41,932 nt of DNA. Origin: Kiritimatiellia bacterium. GTDB taxonomy: Bacteria > Verrucomicrobiota > Kiritimatiellia > RFP12 > UBA1067. Shown one piece after another: positions 14,144 to 25,121 of the stretch (its first letter is position 1; the number at the start of each line of letters is the position of its first letter). Under the pieces are notes generated by a model. That model saw only the letters and a program-made list of their open reading frames with translations, was not told the origin of the DNA and did no database searches. The DNA is taken from contig JAFUEM010000016.1 in NCBI GenBank assembly GCA_017463935.1, positions 1 through 41,932 of the forward strand, given 5' to 3'. The translations under genes and the position numbers were made by a program.

Positions 14144-14725
14144 ATGGCGCTAAACGACGTTCTAAATGAAGTTGCAAAGCAACTTGGACTGAGAGACACG
14201 CGGATAGACACGCTGCGTAGAAAGCAAGCGGAACTTTCCGAATCCATACGAGACAACCATGACAGATTGGAGGCGCTGAAGAAACGCGTTGACGATCTTG
14301 ATTCTCGGCTCATCAAGAAAAAGCACGAGTATGATGCTGCAGGCCCCGGAAGGAAAAGGATTATAAAGGAAGAGATCAAGTTGCTCTTTGCGCAACAGGA
14401 TCGAATCACGGAGCCTGTGTCAGCCATTGCAGACCGCATACGGCTTGATGAGCTTGTAAAAGACAAGATAGACATTCTCATATTTGCCGAAGAGAATCCT
14501 TCGCGTACGGAGGAGATTGATGAGATGACGCTTGACATGAAGGAATGGCTTGACGAGCAGAAGGTCCAGTCCAAGGCTTCTGCGGAATTGGGCGACGCTT
14601 CGTATTCTCATCAAGAGGACGAAGCAGAACTCGACAGTCGCCTAAATGCGATAGACGGAGTGGATGAAACGGCTAAGGCATCTCACACCGATCCTATTGA
14701 CGAGCGAATCGCTCAATTGGGATAA
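14144..14725 (+). CDS. ESCRT-III/Snf7/PspA-superfamily-like coiled-coil protein
   Basis: All-helical with a basic N-half and acidic C-half. EEIDEMTLDMKEWLDEQ...EDEAELDSRLNAI resembles Snf7 helices 3-5. C-terminal DPIDERIAQLG is MIM1-like. Confidence 0.55.
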   Translation: MALNDVLNEVAKQLGLRDTRIDTLRRKQAELSESIRDNHDRLEALKKRVDDLDSRLIKKKHEYDAAGPGRKRIIKEEIKLLFAQQDRITEPVSAIADRIRLDELVKDKIDILIFAEENPSRTEEIDEMTLDMKEWLDEQKVQSKASAELGDASYSHQEDEAELDSRLNAIDGVDETAKASHTDPIDERIAQLG

Positions 14726-14765
14726 TCTGATTTACTGGTAACAACCTAAAGAAAGGAATCAAAAA

Positions 14766-15425
14766 ATGGGTATTGCTGATCTGTTCAAGTCCTCCAAGGA
14801 AATTGAACGCGAAAAGAACCGCGCTCGCCGTAGGGCGTTGCGCGATGTTGAACGCGCTTCTGACGTCGTCAAGGATCGCATTGCGACCTTGAAAAAGGAA
14901 CGCGATGCTGCATGGACACAGGCCCGTGAGTATCTACGCGATGGGCAGAAGTCGGCTGCTCAAAGATGCCTTCAGTCCGTACAGGCGAACGAACTGATGA
15001 TGGGCAAGCTCGAACGCAAGAGTTGGGTGTTCAGCCAGTTGGCGACAAAGATGGAAATGGCGAAGACCGATCAGGAGTTTGCCGCCGCTCTTGGCAATCT
15101 GAACACTACGCTCGAAATTGACCCCGACAAGGTTGCTGATGTGCTTGGTGACGTTGACGGTACGCTTTCAGAGCAGGGTGATATCGACAAGATATGGGAG
15201 AAGGAATACGGGAAGGAAATGAATGGACTTTCCCAATCCGATGCCATTCCGTCGGTAGAGGAGATGATGGCTAACCTTGAGAAAGAGGTTGTCGCCGATG
15301 TCACGGGCGGAAAGTCGGTGGCGGGGAAGGTCTTGTCAGCCGGAAGGGATGCCGTGGGTGGAATTGCCGAGGCTATAGGTGAGGGGCGCCGCAGGCTTAA
15401 GGCTCTGATGGACGGAAAGAAATAA
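14766..15425 (+). CDS. ESCRT-III (Snf7/Vps2/Vps24-like) protein
   Basis: MGIADLF N-terminal amphipathic start. RRALRDVER...GQKSAAQRCLQ resembles Vps2-type RALERTQRE...GQVAAAK. IDPDKVADVLGDV (helix 3/4), SVEEMMANLEKEV (helix 5), terminal RRRLKAL. Confidence 0.75.
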   Translation: MGIADLFKSSKEIEREKNRARRRALRDVERASDVVKDRIATLKKERDAAWTQAREYLRDGQKSAAQRCLQSVQANELMMGKLERKSWVFSQLATKMEMAKTDQEFAAALGNLNTTLEIDPDKVADVLGDVDGTLSEQGDIDKIWEKEYGKEMNGLSQSDAIPSVEEMMANLEKEVVADVTGGKSVAGKVLSAGRDAVGGIAEAIGEGRRRLKALMDGKK

Positions 15426-15449
15426 CCCTATTCCTTGGGAGGTAAGCGC

Positions 15450-16643
15450 ATGAGTAGTTTCAATGCGGACAAGAAGCGGGAACATGAGGCGTTGGCGGAA
15501 AAGGCGCTTGCGGCAGGAGACTACGCAAAGGCATTCTTCCATACGGCGCAAGCGGCAGAGTTCACGTTCAACCTCGCAGACCAGAGCGATGGTGATGTGG
15601 CCAGGGCTTATCTTGAAGACGCAAATGAATTGGTGAACATTGCAGCTTCGTTTAAGGAAAAGGCCGCTAAGTCTGGTGCCCGAGTGAATAAAGAAGAGTC
15701 GGGAGGTGCCGAGGTTGATGCGTCTGCAAAAGGTAAGTGGACTGTCACATCTGTCGGCGACATCCTTTTGGATGATGTAAAGGGTCTGACCGAGGCAAAG
15801 GCCGTTGTAATGGATGCATTGATTAATCCCGTTAACCATCCCGACATCTACAAGACACTTAAGGTCAAGCCGGGCACGGGACTCTTATTGTATGGCCCTC
15901 CCGGAACAGGCAAGACTATGTTTGCAAAGGCTATCGCCAATGAGATGAAGACAACGTTCATGCATGTGAAGCTGAACGAACTCAAGAGCAAATATGTAGG
16001 AGAGACGGAGCAGAACATAGCGGAGATGTTCCGTGAGGCCAGGTCCTACAAGAAATGCGTTCTGTTCCTCGATGAATGCGAATCCATGTTGCGCAAGCGC
16101 GGCAATCAAAAGGTCTGCATGGTTGAACAGTTCCTTGTCGAACTTGACGGTTTCAAGAAAGACGATGGCAATCAACTGTTTGTCCTTCTCGCCACAAACA
16201 GGCCTTGGATGCTCGACAGCGCCATTACCCGAAGCGGACGCATCAGCACGGCTGTATATGTTGGGTTGCCAGAAAAGGAGACAAGGCGGCTGATTATCGA
16301 TTCTGCACTCAAGGACGTGCCGCTTTCGCCAGATGTGGATCTTGACAAACTGTCCGACTTGACTGAGGGCTTCAGTGGAGCGGAAATCAGTCACAAGGAG
16401 AATGGCGGTGGCGTATGCGACGATGCTCGGAAGTTTGCGGCAAGAAGATGGATCGAAAGGCGGAAAAGTCAGGCGGAAGGTTCTGAAGAATGGGCAAAGA
16501 TCGAACCAGTTACATGGGCTGATTTTGACCGCGCGTTGAAAACGGTAGTTCCAACATCGAAACGTGATGCAGAAATTATACAGAAGAATCTTGCGTTTCG
16601 TGATTCGGGTGGGAATGTAAGTGACGACTCGGACTCTGATTGA
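15450..16643 (+). CDS. Single-ring AAA+ ATPase with N-terminal MIT-like domain (Vps4/CdvC-like)
   Basis: SD GGAGG. MIT-like AGDYAKAFFHTAQAAEF...ELVNIAASFKEK. DDVKGLTEAK, Walker A GPPGTGKT, pore loop SKYVGE, Walker B LFLDE, ATNRPWMLDSAI, C-terminal VTWADFDRALKTVVPT. Confidence 0.85.
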   Translation: MSSFNADKKREHEALAEKALAAGDYAKAFFHTAQAAEFTFNLADQSDGDVARAYLEDANELVNIAASFKEKAAKSGARVNKEESGGAEVDASAKGKWTVTSVGDILLDDVKGLTEAKAVVMDALINPVNHPDIYKTLKVKPGTGLLLYGPPGTGKTMFAKAIANEMKTTFMHVKLNELKSKYVGETEQNIAEMFREARSYKKCVLFLDECESMLRKRGNQKVCMVEQFLVELDGFKKDDGNQLFVLLATNRPWMLDSAITRSGRISTAVYVGLPEKETRRLIIDSALKDVPLSPDVDLDKLSDLTEGFSGAEISHKENGGGVCDDARKFAARRWIERRKSQAEGSEEWAKIEPVTWADFDRALKTVVPTSKRDAEIIQKNLAFRDSGGNVSDDSDSD

Positions 16644-16669
16644 GATTTTAACATGAAAGGATCTTGAAT

Positions 16670-17584
16670 ATGGAAGAACGTTTCATAGGCAATATGTTGG
16701 GACTATCATTTATGAAGTGGTGGTTCCTGCTGATTCCAAAGGTAGGCATGACGTTGTTCGTCGGCTATGTTTGCTACATGGGTTGGACGAATCTTGGGCC
16801 ACACAAGCCCATTCCGGATGTCGCCAGAATGAAAGCCGCCGACCATGCTGTGGATAAAATCGTTGATTCCATACAGCATAACCGAGGAGGGATGCGAAGC
16901 GCGGCGCTTTGTCATTTCGCCAACGACACGACGGACTACTTTTCGCGGAAACTTCGTGAGCGTATAGAGCAGTCGAACATCCTCGATCTGTCTGACATTG
17001 ACTTCTCCGAGAAGTTGCGTACTGTTTTGAATCTTCGCAACAAAGGTGCAACATCTGCTGACGAGGCTCGGTCAGCAACAAAAAGAGAAAATGTTGACTG
17101 TGTTTTATGGGGTAGTCTTGACAGATTCGAGTCTATAAAAGGCGGGGCAACGCTCACGGGTGAGTGGCAATTAGTAGATAAGAATACAGGCGTTGTCGTT
17201 TGCGGTGGACAAATTCATGAGGGAGCGGGATCGTCAAATTTTGTAGAAGCAATTTCGACGTTGGGGCAGTCTGCCGACGATGTCGAAATTGCCGCATCAG
17301 TCGTTCCGTGGTATATGAGACTTTTGGGTTTTGTTCTTCTTGTTCTGTTGTTGCCAATCGTTACGATATCGTTCATCAGGACAATGGTTGCGAAGCGCTC
17401 AAACAAGGTCAACGCATTTATGCTAGGTGTATACACGGTAATCGACATGATTCTTGCCTTTTTCATGGTCGGAGGAACCTTTTGTTCGTTTGCGCCGGTA
17501 GCAGTATTTCTTGGTGCATCAATGCTCGCCTTCCTCTACAATGTGTCGCTAATGTCATTTGCATTGCGTCTGGAAACGGAATAA
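16670..17584 (+). CDS. Membrane protein: N-terminal TM, CsgG/LpoB-like extracytoplasmic domain, three C-terminal TMs
   Basis: Hydrophobic stretches at both ends. ALCHFANDT...VDCVLWGSL...WQLVDKNTGVVV pattern typical of the CsgG/LpoB/TolB-N fold. Confidence 0.55.
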   Translation: MEERFIGNMLGLSFMKWWFLLIPKVGMTLFVGYVCYMGWTNLGPHKPIPDVARMKAADHAVDKIVDSIQHNRGGMRSAALCHFANDTTDYFSRKLRERIEQSNILDLSDIDFSEKLRTVLNLRNKGATSADEARSATKRENVDCVLWGSLDRFESIKGGATLTGEWQLVDKNTGVVVCGGQIHEGAGSSNFVEAISTLGQSADDVEIAASVVPWYMRLLGFVLLVLLLPIVTISFIRTMVAKRSNKVNAFMLGVYTVIDMILAFFMVGGTFCSFAPVAVFLGASMLAFLYNVSLMSFALRLETE

Positions 17585-17598
17585 TCAAGGAGAGCGAC

Positions 17599-17910
17599 AT
17601 GGTTTTGGCAGAGCTAATCTGGCTTGTTCTTGCGACAGCAGGAGCTGTATGCGGCGGAGGGTGGCCGTTTTTGCTCTTTGCCGTCAACATTGGTGTGTTG
17701 CTTCTGTTCGGTTGCGACAAGCGAGCTGCTATAAAACGTCTGCCTCGAATTCCAGAAAAGGAACTTTTGTTTTGGACGGCGTTGGGAGGGTCTGCCGGTG
17801 CTATGATAGGGATCCTGCTCTTTAAGCACAAAAGCTCCAAATGGTCGATGACAGGCTGGGTTGTAATCCTGTTTGTATTTCATTGCGCATTGCTTGCATA
17901 CCTTGCATAG
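17599..17910 (+). CDS. DUF1294 family membrane protein
   Basis: SD AAGGAG. FGCDKRAA...RIPEKELLFWTALGGSAGAMIGILLFKHKSSK matches the DUF1294 consensus. Confidence 0.85.
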   Translation: MVLAELIWLVLATAGAVCGGGWPFLLFAVNIGVLLLFGCDKRAAIKRLPRIPEKELLFWTALGGSAGAMIGILLFKHKSSKWSMTGWVVILFVFHCALLAYLA

Positions 17911-17923
17911 AAAGGAGAGCGTC

Positions 17924-19717
17924 ATGTCTGAAGTATTGATAAAGCGGTTACAAGATGGAGATAAAAAGTTATTGAAACGTCTTCTTGATTCGCAGCGTGA
18001 ACTGCATGGGTTTTATTCTGTCAAAGCATTGTCTAGTGGCGCGGAAATTCAAAAAGTGTGGACGATGGATAAGGCCAAAGATGCTTTAAGTCGAAATAGG
18101 TTGTATCAGGTTTTATCAACCGAATTTGTTTGCGAGTATGTAGAACGTAATTGGGAAGATTGCGATGTGTCAATACGGTTGCGGTTGCAAATATATCCTG
18201 AAGGCGAAGGGTTTGCCAGATGGCTTTTGTGCAATCGTGATTCGTGGAACGCTGATGCCACAATGATATTTGCGCCAGCGCTGGAAGCTGCATTGCAAAC
18301 TGATGCCCAGTATGGATTGTCATCTTATGTCCGTTCGTGTCGGCATAAGACCAAACTTGAGCGACTGAGAGAAATGGGAGCAGATGCGTGGCCATGGCAA
18401 GGTACTGAATTCTTACGCGCCAAGTGGCTTGGAGTCGTTGATGTAGAAGAGGTGCGTGTCACTTCGCACGAACCGATTAAGCGGCCTATTGTCGTTTGTG
18501 AAGGTGCAATTCTGAACGGACAATATAAGCTTATCCGAAAACTAGGACAAGGTGGAATGGGCGAGGTATGGTTGTCTGAAGACATCTATTGGGAGAAGGA
18601 CGGAGAAGAGAAGGAGAAATTTGCCATCAAGGTTCTTTTGCCGACTCTCGACAGGGATGTGCGCGAACGGATAAAGCATGAAGCGGCCATGCAGAAGAAA
18701 CTGAAGCATGATAATATTGCCTGCATCCGCAATTGCCATATAGATGAGGGCAATTCGTTTCTAGTCATAGACTATATAGACGGTCTCACGTTGTCAGATT
18801 ATCTTGAAAAGCGGGGAGGTTGCCTTTCTCCGGAGAAAGCGAAGAAAATTCTTCTACCAATAGCAAAGGCCATAGATTTCGCACATGAAAAGGGAGTCGT
18901 TCACCGTGATATTAAGCCAGACAACATTATGGTTGAGACGGGGGATGATGGAGTGGAAACGCCGTATATTCTTGATTTTGGACTTGCAAGACGATCATCC
19001 GTATCCCGCAGGGTATCAGTCTGTGGAACCGAACCTTACATGCCGCGTGAGCTATTACTGGAAGATGATGATGTCCTTAATTCGGCCGAAGTGCTACGCA
19101 AGATAGATGTTTATAGTTTTGCCGTAACAGCGTACCAGTGCTTAACGGGCAATCTACCTTTTATAAACAGAAAAGAGATTCTTGATTTAAGCATACAACC
19201 AGTGCCATTAGGTGACGAAGTGATATATGGCAGGAGTATCATGCAGGGTTTGAGCAAGGATCCAAATCTCCGTCCTAAAAGGTGCGTGGAACTATTGAAT
19301 GCACCTCAACGCAAGCCGCAACCGCCACCACCTGATGAAGTTGTTCTTTCGTGGGAAGAAATCGTGCGCGATTACCAAGATATGCTTAAGGCTTGCGATA
19401 TGTTTGACAAATGGCAGATGATTGAGAGAGCTCATGTCGTAAGCCGCAATTTACGAACGGGTGACGTGCGGATTCTTTCGGTAAGCGCGTTCCTTGACTT
19501 TTTGACGAAGATGCCGACGTTTGTCTCTTTGGTTAAAACAAAAAACAAGGCTAGAACGCCACGTTACAATCTAGAATGCTGGTTTACGGCGGTAAAACGA
19601 TGGAACGACCAAAGCAAAAGGGATGAGCTTCGGTCAGAGTTTGGAGAAGCGAAATTCGCCGTGTTGGACGCTATATACAACAGCATCACTAAAACAAATG
19701 AGGAGGAATGGACATGA
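17924..19717 (+). CDS. Hanks-type Ser/Thr protein kinase with N-terminal SPFH-like domain and unknown C-terminal domain
   Basis: LGQGGMGEVW, AIKVL, HRDIKPDNI, DFGLA, GTEPYMPRE, DVYSFAV. No TM seen. The N-terminal 190 aa are homologous to the N-terminus of 25169..27715. Confidence 0.9.
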   Translation: MSEVLIKRLQDGDKKLLKRLLDSQRELHGFYSVKALSSGAEIQKVWTMDKAKDALSRNRLYQVLSTEFVCEYVERNWEDCDVSIRLRLQIYPEGEGFARWLLCNRDSWNADATMIFAPALEAALQTDAQYGLSSYVRSCRHKTKLERLREMGADAWPWQGTEFLRAKWLGVVDVEEVRVTSHEPIKRPIVVCEGAILNGQYKLIRKLGQGGMGEVWLSEDIYWEKDGEEKEKFAIKVLLPTLDRDVRERIKHEAAMQKKLKHDNIACIRNCHIDEGNSFLVIDYIDGLTLSDYLEKRGGCLSPEKAKKILLPIAKAIDFAHEKGVVHRDIKPDNIMVETGDDGVETPYILDFGLARRSSVSRRVSVCGTEPYMPRELLLEDDDVLNSAEVLRKIDVYSFAVTAYQCLTGNLPFINRKEILDLSIQPVPLGDEVIYGRSIMQGLSKDPNLRPKRCVELLNAPQRKPQPPPPDEVVLSWEEIVRDYQDMLKACDMFDKWQMIERAHVVSRNLRTGDVRILSVSAFLDFLTKMPTFVSLVKTKNKARTPRYNLECWFTAVKRWNDQSKRDELRSEFGEAKFAVLDAIYNSITKTNEEEWT

Positions 19718-20793
19718 AAATCAATCTTGCGATATGGACAGCCGTGGATGGCTACGATTGGCAACCCGGAAGCATTTATTCTCCAAAGGAACTTGCGGAC
19801 TTTAAGGACGAAATAGGGCCGCTCGTTCCTGACTCACTTCCGATCGGCGGGTTGTTTCTCAAGGATGGCACAGTGGTGTTCTACCGGGTCCAGATTGCGG
19901 ATCGAATGGACTCCCATGGGCGCGGCGCAATCTATTGTGTCCTTGGTACCTTGCCAGAGGACAAGGCCGGTGACGTAGATTTCTCTGTTGTGTTTAATTC
20001 GCCTGAAATGGCCGTCCCGAAGAAACCGTTTCCCTTGTCCATCGACTATCAAGGTGGACCGTCAACACACAACACATCATTGGGGCGAGACGGATTCTCG
20101 GAGAGACGCTTCAACGGTACGGATACATTCTGCGAACTGGGCGGATGGTGTAACGAAGCGAAGGCTGGTAAACTCAAAGTACGGATAACAGGAACGATGG
20201 ACGCCCCTCTGTTCGTAGTTGACTACAAGCCTCATGTCGAACCCGTTGTCGAGCCGCCAAAGCCGCCGCCGCAACCGTTTTATATGGCAGCGAGTGAACA
20301 GCAACAGCCACCGTCGTCGCTGCATCTGCACAAGCGAGTCTCGACGTCGCCGTCTTCGTGGCCAGAACCGGAGATGCCGAATCAGCAGAATCGGGCGAGC
20401 ATGTCTGCCAGCACAGCGCTAGCTCGCCCACAAGACGGTCTCAAGGCGTTTTGCAGCGGAGCGATTCTTGGTTTTGTAGGTGGAGTTTTTTTAACGGCAC
20501 TTGTAGTCTGGCTATGGCCGTCCACAAAAGTTGAGAAGTCGCCAGACGGAACGGCTTCTGTTCTTTCAATGAAAGGTGATGATGCGGTAAATGTCCGGAA
20601 ACAGAAGGAGCATAAAGATGGCGATGTAAGAATTCCGTCAGACGATGGCCGGCGAAGCGATGCCATGAATGAGTCTCCAAAGAACCAATGGTATAAGTGT
20701 CCAGGTTGCAAGGGCGCGGGTCGTGTTCGTTCTTTCCGTGGATATGTCACGTGCACAGAATGCAATGGAATGGGGAAAGTTGCAATGCCATGA
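19714..20793 (+). CDS. Single-pass membrane protein: GAP1-N-like N-terminal domain, Pro-rich linker, TM, DnaJ-type zinc finger
   Basis: ATGA overlap with the kinase stop. RMDSHGRGAIYCVLG motif, PPKPPPQP linker, TM AILGFVGGVFLTALVVWLWP, CPGCKGAG and CTECNGMG. Confidence 0.6.
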   Translation: MKINLAIWTAVDGYDWQPGSIYSPKELADFKDEIGPLVPDSLPIGGLFLKDGTVVFYRVQIADRMDSHGRGAIYCVLGTLPEDKAGDVDFSVVFNSPEMAVPKKPFPLSIDYQGGPSTHNTSLGRDGFSERRFNGTDTFCELGGWCNEAKAGKLKVRITGTMDAPLFVVDYKPHVEPVVEPPKPPPQPFYMAASEQQQPPSSLHLHKRVSTSPSSWPEPEMPNQQNRASMSASTALARPQDGLKAFCSGAILGFVGGVFLTALVVWLWPSTKVEKSPDGTASVLSMKGDDAVNVRKQKEHKDGDVRIPSDDGRRSDAMNESPKNQWYKCPGCKGAGRVRSFRGYVTCTECNGMGKVAMP

Positions 20794-22958
20794 AGAAGGT
20801 GGCAATAGTCGGGGTCAAGGGTAGCGGCAAGACCGTCCTCATGGCGGTCATGGGGGATCGTTATCGTAAGCCGAGAGAAGATGGACTATTTCTGTATGCG
20901 AAAAGCCGTGCGACCATTAACTATTGCAATGAACAGATTAATCAGCTACGCAATGAGGGCGCATGGCCAGATGCGACTGCACCTGATGAACTTGTTGATC
21001 TAGAATGGACGCTTTTCCGGCGTTCCGGCGGTGGCGTAAAGCCTGAAAAAGTTTGCGAAATTTCTTTTCTCGACTTTGCAGGTGAGATATATAATCTCGC
21101 CTTTGACGATGCGGTAGATGAGGATTCGCAACGAAAGAGAAGGTCTTACAGCGCACAGATTGAAGCACTTAAGTCGCATTTGCGTGATGCCGAATCCACG
21201 ATAGTGCTCGTGAACCTTGATGATATCATACGTTCGCAGGGGGTCGCTAAAGAGGCGACGGAGATGGAGTGGTTGTCTCAAAAGATATTCGAGTTCGTTT
21301 TTGCCGAAACGTCAGCACGGCGAGTCGCCATTGTCTTTACTCAGAAGGATTTATATGCCAATATCATCTCGAAGTACGGCGGACTTGACGGCGTTTTTGC
21401 AGAGTACCTTCCCGCGGTATTCTATCGGCATGAATCGCAGATAAAACCTTTTGCCTTGACTGCCGTAAACAAGACGATTCCCGGCTTGGATGGGGTATTA
21501 ATACCAGATCCCAAATTCGAGTCGGAAGGATTGGAAGAATTGATGTTGTGGATTGCCGATAGTAAGAGCATTCATGACACTGAACGTCTCCGTGCCAACA
21601 GAGCTAAGTTTGTAGTTGCAGACAAGTGTGAGATTGCCGAAACTGGTGATTTTGTGGAGATTGATTACGCGGGATTTATTGACGGCAAACCGATAGTTGA
21701 GAAATTTCCAGATGCAGCGACTTTGGCGGAAGGACAGGGCCTTTGGATACAGATTGATGAGGGATGCTTTATTCCTGAAATACTAGGCGCTGTGGAGGGC
21801 ATGAAGGTCGGTGAAACAAAATCCGACGTCAATGTAAAGTTCAACAAATACGGCGTACCAGATTCGCTTAAAGGCAAGAACGCTGTATACGTCGTTACAC
21901 TTAAAGGGTTACGTCGCCGTGTTTTTCCGACAGATACGGAAGTCGCTACGCGAAAGAAAGTTGAGAGTTTTGATGAGAATAAGAATGAAATTCATGAGCC
22001 GTCTGAACAGAATTTTACATTGAGGAAGAGCGGCGAGGAGAAGACATTGATATTGCCAGGCGGGGCGAGGATGGATATGATCTACGTCGTGCCAGGATCG
22101 TTTATGATGGGAAGTCCGCTATTAGAGTGGGGACGAGATTGGGACGAGAAGCGTCATAAAGTGGTTTTAACCAAGGGCTATTGGCTTGGCAAGTATGAAG
22201 TCACGCAGGAACAATGGCAGAGTGTAATGGGCGGAAACCCGTCGTCCTTCAAGTGTGGGCGAAATCCTGTCGAAATGGTTTCTTGGGATGACTGCCAACA
22301 ATTCATTCAGAAGGTCAATGCGCAATTGAACTGTGGTGCAAGACTGCCGACAGAGGCCGAGTGGGAATTCGCCTGTCGTGCTGGGACATCATCTGCCTAT
22401 TATTGGGGCACTGCGCTCAATGGTAACGCGGCTAACTGCGACGGGAATTATCCACGTGGAACAAGAGAAAAAGGCCCTTGCAAACAACAGACAACACCCG
22501 TTGGTAGTTACACGGCGAATGCATGGGGCTTCTACGATATGTCTGGCAATGTCTGGGAGTGGTGTAATGATTGGTATGGAAGCTACAGCAGCAATGAGAT
22601 TGACCCACAGGGGCCAATATTTGGGTCGAGTCGAGTGCTGCGTGGAGGTTGCTGGTTTAGCCCTGCAGAATTTAGTCGCTCCTCGTGTCGTCGTAACGAT
22701 TCTCCAGATAGTCGATCTTCATGTCAGGGATTTCGACTGTGTTGCTCACAAGAATATAATTTCGATGAAAAAGGACAGACTGATACAATAAATGAAACAG
22801 AACAGTCTGCGCCCTATGGTGAAGAGTCTTTTGCTACAGTAGAATTGCAAAGACAGAAAAAGGGTGAATCTGAAGGCATAAATTTCTGGGAAACATTGAA
22901 ATTCATTATAGGAATTATGATTGTTGCTGTAGTTCTCTATTTCTCCTTCTGCAAATAA
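20790..22958 (+). CDS. TRAFAC-class GTPase fused to trigger-factor-like FKBP domain, FGE-sulfatase (SUMF1-like) domain and C-terminal TM
   Basis: G1 GVKGSGKT, G2 WPDAT, G3 DFAGE, G4 TQKD, G5 TAV. FKBP-like GDFVEIDYAGFIDG...FIPEILGAVEGMKVGE. FGE motifs FMMGS, YEVTQEQW, RLPTEAEWEFACR, YDMSGNVWEWC, RGGCW, GFRL. Confidence 0.85.
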   Translation: MKKVAIVGVKGSGKTVLMAVMGDRYRKPREDGLFLYAKSRATINYCNEQINQLRNEGAWPDATAPDELVDLEWTLFRRSGGGVKPEKVCEISFLDFAGEIYNLAFDDAVDEDSQRKRRSYSAQIEALKSHLRDAESTIVLVNLDDIIRSQGVAKEATEMEWLSQKIFEFVFAETSARRVAIVFTQKDLYANIISKYGGLDGVFAEYLPAVFYRHESQIKPFALTAVNKTIPGLDGVLIPDPKFESEGLEELMLWIADSKSIHDTERLRANRAKFVVADKCEIAETGDFVEIDYAGFIDGKPIVEKFPDAATLAEGQGLWIQIDEGCFIPEILGAVEGMKVGETKSDVNVKFNKYGVPDSLKGKNAVYVVTLKGLRRRVFPTDTEVATRKKVESFDENKNEIHEPSEQNFTLRKSGEEKTLILPGGARMDMIYVVPGSFMMGSPLLEWGRDWDEKRHKVVLTKGYWLGKYEVTQEQWQSVMGGNPSSFKCGRNPVEMVSWDDCQQFIQKVNAQLNCGARLPTEAEWEFACRAGTSSAYYWGTALNGNAANCDGNYPRGTREKGPCKQQTTPVGSYTANAWGFYDMSGNVWEWCNDWYGSYSSNEIDPQGPIFGSSRVLRGGCWFSPAEFSRSSCRRNDSPDSRSSCQGFRLCCSQEYNFDEKGQTDTINETEQSAPYGEESFATVELQRQKKGESEGINFWETLKFIIGIMIVAVVLYFSFCK

Positions 22959-22968
22959 GAATAAATTT

Positions 22969-25029
22969 ATGAAAACAATGAGAAAAGTGGCGATAGTTGG
23001 GGTTGAAGGCAGCGGTAAGACCGTCTTGATGTCTGTCATGGGCGACAAGTACGAATCGCCAGACATCAATGGTGTATTCCTCCAGCCAATGAACCGTGAA
23101 ACCTATTCGTACTACACGAAGGAGACGGCAAAGTTGCGAGACGGCAAGTGGCCGCTTGCAACGGAAAGCATTGTCTTGGAATTGGATTGGATGCTGATGA
23201 GGCAATCGAGTTCTGATGCGCATCAAGAAAAACTTGGACAGATTTCTTTTCTCGATTTTGGCGGTGAGGTCTATAGGATCGCTTTTGCCGACAAATCGCA
23301 GCAAGAATTGAATGCCATAGAGGAACAGAGGCGAAACGCGGCAGAGCGTCTTAGGGCGCATGTGCAGGATGCGGATGTGTTGATTGTCCTCATCAACCTA
23401 AGTGATATCATTAATGGTAAGCAAGGGGAAGATCGGACAATTGAGATGAATTGGCTTTCGCAGGCGATATTATCATACGCTTACGAAAAAGCGGGAAAAA
23501 CCAATGTCGCGCTTGTGTTCACGCAGACGGACTTGTACGCCCCCACGATAGAAAAATGCGGAGGATTGCGCGGTACTCTTGCTGCTTGCATGCGTACTGT
23601 CAATTCAAGATATGGGAACCGACTTTCGCTCTTTTCTGTTTCTGCGGTGAAGTCGGTTCCTTCTCGCGATGGCACTGGCGCTCAAGTTCCAATACCCGAT
23701 TTTAAGCCGCAGGGTCTTGAACAGTTAATTGGATGGATAGTGGAGGGCATAGACGAAGAGCGTAATAGACGTGAAGCGGATTGCGCTGCTGTAGCTAGGG
23801 ATGAAGAAAAGAGGCGTAAAAGATGGAAAATTGCCGCTGGGCTGATAGGACTATTAGGGATTTTAGGGTTTGGATCATGGATTGGCTACAATGCCAACAC
23901 AGACTTAAAGAACTTCATTGATGGACACTTGATGGCTTGGGGTTGGATGCACCAAGAGGCACCTGCCACATCTGAATCGCGTCCTGTTGTTGTGTCAGCA
24001 AAGCCTGTTGAAATATCGACAAATGTTGTGCCGGTGCAGACAAAGCCGCCGACCGTAACTCCAGACCCTCCGAAACCCAAACCAAGGTGGATAGTGGGAG
24101 CAAGTAATCCGAACAACCCTAATCTTATTGCTGGTGAGAGCCGCGACACTTGGGTCGCAAACAGACCGGGTTATGTTTGGGTCAGAGGAACGGACAGGGA
24201 CGAGTGGAAACAGGGGTTGCGCCATCCTGAAAACTCTAAACTTGTGTCTGATTGGAAAGAGGGCACGTGGAAGTCAACGCAGGCTGGGTATGTTTGGACA
24301 GGAGGCAATCAGACCGAATGGCGTGAAAATTTGAAACATCCCGATTGGCCGCATGTCCTTTCAAGCCCCGAAGAGAACAATTGGCACGCAGAGGAAGGAT
24401 ACAAGTGGGTTGACCCAGATGCGAAAAATGATTTCTCTGTGGCATGGAACCCAGGCAAGATTATAAATGGAAGGAAAACAGCATCGTCTCCTGGTCAATG
24501 GCTGAAAAAGTGTTCTGCGTGTAATGGGCGCGGAAAAAAGGACTGTTGGAAATGTGATGGTGACGGTAGGATCAATTGCACTAGTTGTAGTGGTTCTGGT
24601 AGGGTTGAGACAACGGAATCTGAAAAATGCTGGATGTGTAATGGGCGGGGACGGATAACCGAAAGTTGTTCCAACTCTGATTGCATAATCTGGCCGAATC
24701 CTTTAAATCCCCACTATGGCAAACATTGTGAGATATGCTCACTTTGCGAAGGGAATGGCGGTCGCTTTGTTCCTGGTCCATGGGGGCCGGTAGCCGTGAA
24801 CTGTACGGCTTGTGTTGGAGGAGTGCGAAGATTATGTCCTACATGTGGCGGTGATAACAAGGTGATTGTTGATTGCAATAATTGCGACAATGGCTATCGC
24901 ACACGACAAACTACGAAGAAATGCTCTGACTGTTCTGGGCGTGGTACGGTTATCTGCCCACGTTCGGAATGCCACAGCGGAAAAGTCTCATGTTCCTCAT
25001 GCAACGGTGATGGTTGGATTGCTGAGTGA
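22969..25029 (+). CDS. TRAFAC-class GTPase fused to TM, Trp-rich repeats and multiple CxxCxGxG zinc fingers
   Basis: G1 GVEGSGKT, WPLAT, DFGGE, TQTD, SAV; paralog of the previous gene. TM about 23824-23889. Seven perfect CxxCxGxG motifs from 24511. Confidence 0.85.
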   Translation: MKTMRKVAIVGVEGSGKTVLMSVMGDKYESPDINGVFLQPMNRETYSYYTKETAKLRDGKWPLATESIVLELDWMLMRQSSSDAHQEKLGQISFLDFGGEVYRIAFADKSQQELNAIEEQRRNAAERLRAHVQDADVLIVLINLSDIINGKQGEDRTIEMNWLSQAILSYAYEKAGKTNVALVFTQTDLYAPTIEKCGGLRGTLAACMRTVNSRYGNRLSLFSVSAVKSVPSRDGTGAQVPIPDFKPQGLEQLIGWIVEGIDEERNRREADCAAVARDEEKRRKRWKIAAGLIGLLGILGFGSWIGYNANTDLKNFIDGHLMAWGWMHQEAPATSESRPVVVSAKPVEISTNVVPVQTKPPTVTPDPPKPKPRWIVGASNPNNPNLIAGESRDTWVANRPGYVWVRGTDRDEWKQGLRHPENSKLVSDWKEGTWKSTQAGYVWTGGNQTEWRENLKHPDWPHVLSSPEENNWHAEEGYKWVDPDAKNDFSVAWNPGKIINGRKTASSPGQWLKKCSACNGRGKKDCWKCDGDGRINCTSCSGSGRVETTESEKCWMCNGRGRITESCSNSDCIIWPNPLNPHYGKHCEICSLCEGNGGRFVPGPWGPVAVNCTACVGGVRRLCPTCGGDNKVIVDCNNCDNGYRTRQTTKKCSDCSGRGTVICPRSECHSGKVSCSSCNGDGWIAE

Positions 25030-25049: not shown

Positions 25050-25121
25050 ATGAGCAATGTTGCTATAGTGGGAGTTGAGCAAAGCGGCAAGACCGCGCTC
25101 ATGACTTCATGGGGATGCTAG
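25050..25121 (+). pseudogene. Remnant of a third GTPase paralog (G1 motif only)
   Basis: SD AGGAG, then MSNVAIVGVEQSGKTALMTSWGC-stop. Matches the N-termini MKKVAIVGVKGSGKTVLMAVMG and MRKVAIVGVEGSGKTVLMSVMG. Absent from the ORF track. Confidence 0.85.

Follow-up and report, generated by a model that had tools for sequence, protein, structure and literature searches.

The DNA considered here is a stretch of 41,932 nucleotides (the window, numbered from its first letter) from a Kiritimatiellia bacterium, forming contig C327 (JAFUEM010000016.1) of a 2.8-Mb metagenome-assembled genome (MAG) that is 85% complete. It encodes a three-gene module, in which a single-pass membrane protein of a previously unnamed family (P0001, hereafter the partner) precedes two tandem GTPases. 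At a probability of roughly 55%, we read this module as a membrane-anchored platform and GTPase switch that is coupled to membrane remodelling. The module is a variant of GTPase-centric systems and not a member of the GAP1 ternary family, to which the original prediction, made from the letters alone, had likened it. The parts of the module are as follows:

19714..20793, + strand: partner protein P0001, 359 residues from its MKI start (175 homologues; AlphaFold 2 [AF2] model)
19714..20247, + strand: conserved N-domain of the partner, residues 3-180 of the frame beginning at 19708 (AF2 confidence score pLDDT >90; invariant columns)
20437..20523, + strand: single transmembrane (TM) helix of the partner, residues 244-272 (hydropathy scan; helix 244-269 in the model)
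20692..20778, + strand: two CxxCxGxG zinc-finger-type motifs after the TM helix (weak match to Pfam DnaJ_CXXCXGXG, E 0.0026)
20790-22958, + strand: GTPase 1 gene, with its true start at the ATG at 20790 and not at the upstream GTG of the longest open reading frame (ORF)
20790..21590, + strand: GTPase domain 1 (G1 GVKGSGKT, switch I WPDAT, G3 DFAGE, G4 TQKD, G5 TAV)
21633..21902, + strand: FKBP-type (trigger-factor-like) peptidyl-prolyl isomerase (PPIase) domain on GTPase 1 (Pfam FKBP_C E 4.1e-7; NCBIfam trigger factor E 2.1e-17, residues 265-413)
22074..22739, + strand: FGE-sulfatase (formylglycine-generating-enzyme-like) domain on GTPase 1 (Pfam PF03781, E 1.2e-48)
22875..22955, + strand: hydrophobic tail anchor at the C-terminus of GTPase 1, residues 696-722 (hydropathy scan)
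22969-25029, + strand: GTPase 2 gene
22969..23775, + strand: GTPase domain 2 (GVEGSGKT, WPLAT, DFGGE, TQTD, SAV)
23827..23886, + strand: TM helix of GTPase 2, residues 287-306, with RRKRWK just before it (hydropathy scan)
24091..25029, + strand: portion of GTPase 2 predicted to be extracytoplasmic, with Trp-rich repeats and then a CxxCxGxG array
25050..25118, + strand: 22-codon relic of a third GTPase N-terminus, MSNVAIVGVEQSGKTALMTSWGC and then a stop (tblastn, 64% identity to the GTPase 1 N-terminus)

Since its homologues begin with MKI, the partner has its most likely start at 19714, and its ORF contains DSHGRGAIYCVLG, the motif that the original prediction noted in the gene preceding the GTPases. 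That this gene would be coupled to its neighbours is borne out at both of its ends: the stop of an upstream Ser/Thr kinase gene overlaps the partner start in an ATGA at 19714-19717, and the partner stop overlaps the start of GTPase 1 in another at 20790-20793, such that kinase, partner, and GTPase 1 are translationally coupled. The hydropathy scan places membrane anchors on all three proteins, i.e., the partner, GTPase 1, and GTPase 2. All of the GTPase motifs listed in the original prediction (GxxGSGKT, WPxAT, DF(A/G)GE, TQ(K/T)D, and (S/T)AV) are present in the translations of both genes; of the extent it gave, 19714-23750, the start holds, while 23750 is the end of the second GTPase domain in a gene that runs on to 25029.

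The partner and GTPase families strictly co-occur and would form a functional pair. Across a sample of 301 genomes of the phylum (searched at E<=1e-15 for the GTPase clade and E<=1e-5 for the partner family), both families were found in exactly the same 8 genomes, sharing a contig in 7 of them, and one to four GTPase genes directly adjoin the partner gene in 11 of the 13 loci with enough sequence. The partner gene lies upstream of the GTPases in the window and in most loci, and downstream only in two divergent ones (L074 and L075). The two families also have modules in common: the Trp-repeat/CxxCxGxG module of GTPase 2 recurs on the partner-family proteins P0036 (L002, 10001-11788) and P0010, the last ~35 residues of the latter being identical to the GTPase 2 C-terminus. 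Its presence on either family suggests that modules are exchanged, or shuffled, between partners and GTPases.

Over 270 residues, the GTPase domains of the two genes share 42% identity (E 5e-61), a paralogy far beyond chance and in keeping with the tandem pair originally described. Copy number ranges from one to four per locus, with two in the window, and in a maximum-likelihood tree the copies within a locus usually cluster (L002, L006, L004, L009, and L011); arrays would therefore arise by recent duplication and not from an old DO-GTPase1/DO-GTPase2 pair. Also, both window GTPases match DO-GTPase2 best, as opposed to one matching DO-GTPase1 and the other DO-GTPase2. On this evidence, arrays grow by recent tandem duplication together with module swapping, and the relic at 25050-25118 was probably left behind when an array contracted. 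The variable copy number and the tree led us to reject a fixed heterodimeric "double GTPase".

As a family, these GTPases are sizeable. A HMMER search with both domains returned 803 cluster representatives at E<1e-3 (188 at E<1e-30), with the GTPase at the N-terminus in nearly all of them and total lengths of 200-1380 residues. The best Pfam family for both window GTPases is DO-GTPase2 (26.7 and 20.3 bits, the cut-off being 27; 29.1 bits in a six-frame search), and among 89 relatives DO-GTPase2 is matched by 77 (E<=0.01, best 1.4e-11) and DO-GTPase1 by 51. In the proposed check against Pfam, the best family is thus a DO-GTPase one, reached at the cut-off or slightly under it; the other half of the check came out negative, as the upstream protein matches neither GAP1-N1 nor GAP1-N2. 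The tree recovers the window clade as monophyletic (97/99 support), a long branch setting it apart from canonical DO-GTPases. Judged from sequence, then, the window GTPases are a well-supported clade of their own, distantly related to DO-GTPases and possessing the DxxGE Walker B. DO-GTPases are themselves defined by a Walker B glutamate (Kaur et al. 2020, PMC7159879).

In an alignment of the 89 members, the P-loop Lys, switch-I W59-P60, Walker B D95/G98/E99, and Q185 are invariant; switch-I T63 is nearly so, and the G4 residue D187 is kept in at least 90%. The replacement of the G4 Lys by Gln, noticed at the outset in the two window proteins, extends to the entire alignment (89/89, [ST]QxD), as opposed to [ST]KxD in six canonical DO-GTPases of the same phylum. 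The original prediction had it that this change may alter nucleotide preference; since the guanine-specifying Asp is kept, GTP is expected to remain the substrate. Guanylate-binding proteins also have no G4 lysine (T[LV]RD), yet bind guanine nucleotides.

Beyond the GTPase domain, the family diversifies. C-terminal modules among the 89 members include Sel1 (13), FGE-sulfatase (11), and DUF805 (5), as well as DnaJ-type zinc fingers, TPR, L12_C, and others, and some members have no such module. It may be asked whether the window proteins form a protein-maturation machine, in which the GTPases would be regulated folding or modification factors (e.g., for the many Kiritimatiellia sulfatases) and the partner an unrelated membrane protein. 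The strong FGE-sulfatase match, the trigger-factor-type PPIase, the CxxCxGxG motifs, and the recurrence of FGE fusions in 11 of 89 members all speak for it. This would nonetheless leave the strict co-occurrence with the partner family unexplained; moreover, most members end in unrelated modules (Sel1, DUF805, TPR, L12_C) or in none, and in conflict systems, too, FGE-like domains have a non-catalytic or effector role (PMC7159879). We therefore hold a maturation machine to be very improbable.

The partner itself is composed of a cytoplasmic N-domain, a Pro-rich linker, one TM helix, and a short tail with the two CxxCxGxG motifs. Close homologues number 37, rising to 175 with a broadened-profile search; their sources are metagenomes or MAGs of Kiritimatiellia and Lentisphaeria. 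Conservation is confined to the first ~175 residues; the tail is variable, often with two terminal CxxCxGxG motifs (10 of 37 homologues carry such motifs). The family alignment has as its invariants WTA..GY.WQ and, in the beta4-beta5 hairpin, D68..G71-R72.A.Y76. Pfam, NCBIfam, and PADLOC scans of the partner yielded nothing but the weak DnaJ-type zinc-finger match in the tail; in a search for a bridging sequence, no Pfam domain was found in the 120 of 175 homologues listed, and a PDB sequence search gave no match for either the partner or the GTPase family. By these searches, the partner is the founder of a previously unnamed and unannotated family restricted to Kiritimatiellia and Lentisphaeria.

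Structure prediction affords a possible identity for the N-domain. Residues 1-102 of the AF2 model follow the order beta-beta-alpha-beta-beta-beta-alpha (pLDDT >90), succeeded by a second small alpha/beta subdomain, and this core is predicted to adopt a longin/PAS-like alpha/beta fold. In Foldseek, the sole significant PDB match of the N-domain is TagF (9t0n, E 8e-5, probability 1.0). Weaker matches (E 0.1-0.8, probability 0.3-0.75) are to longin subunits of SEAC/GATOR1 (Nprl), FLCN-FNIP2, Fuzzy-Inturned, Mon1-Ccz1, and DENND10, and PAS/LOV domains are also weakly retrieved. No sequence match of the partner family to longin domains or TagF was found (Pfam at E<=10 on 37 homologues; PDB sequence search).

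Given these properties, could the module be a divergent but true DO-GTPase/GAP1 ternary system, its partner a shortened GAP1 with GAP1-N only and its effectors moved onto the GTPases? We regard this as unlikely, despite a broad resemblance to such systems (Kaur, Burroughs, Iyer, Aravind 2020, PMC7159879; PF19993, PF19975, PF20012, PF20013). Common to both are TRAFAC GTPases with a Walker B Glu, often in paralogous copies, membrane proximity, a constant partner encoded alongside, hypervariable modules including FGE, and a patchy, island-like distribution. DO-GTPase2 and DO-GTPase1 are the best Pfam matches of the clade, and FGE domains have been named as effectors of planctomycete GAP1-N2 systems (PMC7159879). 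A GAP1 gene typically lies downstream of its GTPase gene, an order that recurs in L074 and L075, whereas the window partner lies upstream.

Predicted structures were compared as well. For GAP1-N2 we aligned sequences of 29 loci from the phylum (AF2 model pLDDT 91), and for GAP1-N1 we used an alignment of 120 sequences. The GAP1-N2 model has the same order of elements, beta-beta-alpha-beta-beta-beta-alpha, as the partner N-domain, and its nearly invariant D86, R90, and N92 sit in the beta4-beta5 hairpin, the location of D68, G71, and R72 in the partner family. Foldseek with the GAP1-N2 model gave no match at E<=0.001; among the weaker ones are TagF (probability 0.96) and the longin domain of FNIP2 (0.95), both also matched by the partner. 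With hhalign, the partner N-domain aligns weakly but collinearly to GAP1-N1 over 92 columns, with GY and DF motifs matched, and in a column-shuffle calibration the observed score was reached by 10 of 300 shuffles for GAP1-N2 and by 46 of 300 for GAP1-N1, i.e., a weak excess only.

The sequence searches, by contrast, gave no significant GAP1-N match. The GAP1-N-like nature initially ascribed to the upstream gene was not borne out: Pfam gave no GAP1-N1 or GAP1-N2 match at E<=10 in 37 partner family members or at E<=1 in 8 divergent ones, a six-frame search of the whole genome with PF20012 and PF20013 gave no GAP1-N match, and hhalign of the N-domain against GAP1-N1/N2 returned P values of 0.06-0.44 with a probability of <=1%. 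This last negative carries little weight, since hhalign cannot link GAP1-N1 to GAP1-N2 either (P 0.34). In canonical loci from this phylum, the identical GAP1-N models reach 106 and 38-96 bits, and GAP1-N2 matches occur in 31 of the 301 genomes (30 above cut-off), none of them among the 8 that hold the module of the window.

For a positive control, we used a canonical system of the same phylum (G081, locus L042), which encodes, in order, Metallophos-GAAD, GASH, DO-GTPase2 (124 bits), DO-GTPase1 (157 bits), and a GAP1 with GAP1-N1 (106 bits). This locus (G081:C18, 4922-18017) is flanked by an IS66 transposase fragment and by an error-prone polymerase pair (DnaE2-like and ImuB-like). Pfam scans detected neither GAP1-M nor GAP1-C in the partner, and no GASH or FNIII component among the 14 proteins of the island in which the window genes lie, the same search showing GASH and GAAD in the control. 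The window module differs further from DO-GTPase/GAP1 systems in that (i) its GTPases form a separate clade with a G4 of [ST]QxD and without N-terminal zinc ribbons, (ii) its copies are recent tandem duplicates onto which the variable modules are fused, (iii) its partner is short and single-pass, with no detectable similarity to GAP1-N, -M, or -C, and (iv) it is tied to ESCRT-III/Vps4/kinase or dynamin-like genes.

Because the partner has neither GAP1-M nor GAP1-C and is without any sequence match, it is, as far as sequence can tell, not a GAP1. Its N-domain might still share deep ancestry with GAP1-N. Of the kinship to GTPase ternary modules that the original prediction proposed, two elements stand, namely, the relation of the GTPases to DO-GTPases and the variability of their C-termini; the GAP1 and the GASH/FNIII component are absent, and the clade is a separate one.

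A membrane-anchored platform for the GTPases can be compared with the known longin and roadblock regulators, i.e., MglB-MglA, the GTPase-activating proteins (GAPs) FLCN-FNIP, GATOR1 Nprl2-Nprl3, and C9orf72-SMCR8, and the guanine nucleotide exchange factors (GEFs) Mon1-Ccz1 and Fuzzy-Inturned. The predicted order of core elements is common to both, Foldseek matches several of these subunits weakly, and the partner gene adjoins the genes of its presumed GTPases, as in mglAB. An arginine finger is used by longin-domain GAPs (PMC12290439), making the invariant R72 a reasonable candidate residue; the partner, too, has a conserved Arg in an exposed loop, even if the two positions may not be equivalent. 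Differing from these regulators, the partner is without sequence similarity to them and is membrane anchored, with structural matches at E 0.1-0.8, and its clients would be DO-GTPase-like and not of the Ras/Arf/Rag superfamily.

TagF (PDB 9t0n, 2qnu), the best structural match of the N-domain, is a post-translational regulator of type VI secretion and acts as a protein-binding platform in a pathway governed by a Ser/Thr kinase; likewise, a kinase gene is translationally coupled to the window partner. TagF, however, is soluble and without known action on a GTPase, and the partner has no sequence similarity to it. The TagF Pfam model is absent from the families at E<=10 for P0001 and from the 25 most-matched families of the 37 homologues, and no type VI secretion families were detected among the window proteins scanned against Pfam. 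TagF is not claimed here as a DENN/longin protein, an assignment that neither Zhang et al. 2012 nor the TagF preprint confirmed.

The link to membrane remodelling comes from the genes that accompany the pair. In the window, these lie upstream of it in the same operon:

14144-16643, + strand: Snf7-family protein and CdvC/Vps4-like AAA ATPase (Pfam Snf7 E 5.5e-7; NCBIfam CdvC E 8.9e-49)
16664-17584, + strand: 306-residue multi-pass membrane protein without a family match, between the AAA ATPase and the kinase
17873..19717, + strand: Ser/Thr protein kinase, 614 residues (Pfam Pkinase E 1.2e-39)

The order Snf7-like protein, AAA ATPase, membrane protein, kinase, partner, and GTPases is conserved in seven loci, and a kinase occupies the equivalent position in 10 related loci. 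Every related locus has the 306-residue membrane protein at this point, with the AAA ATPase before it and the kinase after it. Locus L077 of a Lentisphaeria MAG (G112:C43, 11194-14888, minus strand) has a trypsin-like protease gene and two Dynamin_N genes upstream of the pair, standing in place of the ESCRT-III/Vps4/kinase genes; this case points to membrane remodelling as a common output. Kaur et al. (PMC7159879) do not mention Snf7, ESCRT, or Vps4. Archaeal ESCRT loci carry membrane Ser/Thr kinases, and those of Asgard archaea also longin-domain proteins (Makarova et al. 2024, PMC10936438), such that ESCRT-III, a Vps4-type ATPase, a Ser/Thr kinase, and a longin-like protein occur together there as in the window. 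The window host is, by contrast, bacterial and its GTPases are DO-GTPase-like, a combination not described in PMC10936438, according to which bacteria have no identifiable ESCRT components.

These same neighbours could be taken to mean that the module has no conflict role, the GTPases and partner serving as housekeeping factors that target bacterial ESCRT-III/Vps4 to membranes (in division, vesicle formation, or envelope repair in the Planctomycetes-Verrucomicrobia-Chlamydiae [PVC] group). The conserved operon order, the precedent of kinases and longin proteins in archaeal ESCRT loci, and the housekeeping flanks without an integrase would be accounted for in this way. Against it speak the rarity of the module (8 of 301 genomes of the phylum), its low-GC island, and the variation in copy number and C-terminal modules between close relatives; also, the partner-GTPase pair occurs without ESCRT or kinase genes in L074, L075, L076, and L077. 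We thus judge a purely housekeeping ESCRT-targeting function to be a little less likely still than a divergent ternary system.

The island in question spans 11.5-34 kb of the window (11500-34000), with a GC content of ~46% against ~65% in the flanks, which encode housekeeping functions (glycoside hydrolases, electron transfer flavoprotein [ETF], and acyl-CoA dehydrogenase). Every gene in it is encoded on the + strand. Genes for a pair of unknown proteins, for two small ones (one with a match to Snf7), and for the Vps4/CdvC-like AAA ATPase come first; the multi-pass membrane protein, the Ser/Thr kinase, the partner gene, GTPase 1, and GTPase 2 follow; an 868-residue unknown protein, a Sel1/TPR protein, and more unknowns end the series. 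A classical mobile element was rejected because no integrase, transposase, or tRNA was seen in the window, island borders included. In a distant locus (L004, 1-3824), a large DUF4011/AAA_11/AAA_12/MTES_1575 helicase gene precedes the operon. Helicases of this type are frequent in defence islands.

The low-GC island, the patchy 8/301 distribution, the variable C-termini, the recent within-locus duplication, and the relic third copy resemble traits of conflict systems. A diversifying role in envelope defence or conflict fits better than a housekeeping one; we consider it the probable role, with housekeeping a serious possibility at somewhat below even odds. The case for defence is nevertheless circumstantial, because the island has no integrase and is set between housekeeping genes.

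Several further observations weigh against a membrane-anchored platform and GTPase switch coupled to membrane remodelling. The longin assignment comes from AF2 models of shallow alignments (37 and 29 sequences), Foldseek matches apart from TagF have E values of 0.1-0.8 and are weak, and a PAS-like fold is common. The topology derives from a simple hydropathy scan, and zinc-finger motifs rich in Cys would be unusual outside the cytoplasm. Neither the GTPases nor the partner are covered by a PADLOC model. The dynamin association is known from the single locus L077, and in L008 and L013, which keep Snf7, kinase, and partner, tblastn found no GTPase downstream of 11038 and 11206, respectively.

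With these points taken into account, the platform and switch would operate as follows. The predicted longin-like domain of the partner would bind the GTPases, either as a platform or as a GAP- or GEF-like regulator, as has been proposed for GAP1-N and shown for MglB/roadblock proteins and eukaryotic longin GAPs. For contact or catalysis, the candidate loop is the hairpin bearing the invariant D68 and R72. The GTPases, through their variable C-terminal modules, would sense, or act on, ligands derived from the envelope or from an invader, and the GTP state would then be relayed, probably together with the coupled Ser/Thr kinase, to the membrane-remodelling proteins encoded alongside. In the window these targets would be the Snf7-type ESCRT-III and the Vps4-like ATPase, and in one relative the dynamin-like pair and trypsin-like protease.

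A bolder version, which we put forward as a long shot, would make the partner a bacterial longin-type GAP or GEF, with the switch directing a true ESCRT-III/Vps4 machine, or interchangeably a dynamin-like one, to membrane sites, and with GAP1-N belonging to the same longin-like superfamily. If so, PVC-group bacteria would possess a self-contained circuit of longin regulator, GTPase, kinase, and ESCRT, with a logic as in Asgard and eukaryotic endomembrane regulation.

Ultimately, our analysis defines a sizeable and unannotated branch of the DO-GTPases, marked by a fixed Lys-to-Gln change in the base-recognition motif, and identifies the so far nameless partner family that strictly co-occurs with it. 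The longin/PAS-like fold predicted for both this partner and GAP1-N2 leads to an idea for the "third component" of conflict systems, i.e., that it may act as a platform for GTPases and bear a conserved Asp/Arg loop. Linkage to Snf7/Vps4, and once to dynamin-like proteins, suggests that these switches control membrane remodelling, and thus bears on how bacteria may regulate ESCRT-like machines as well as on the deep history of the pairing of longin domains with GTPases.

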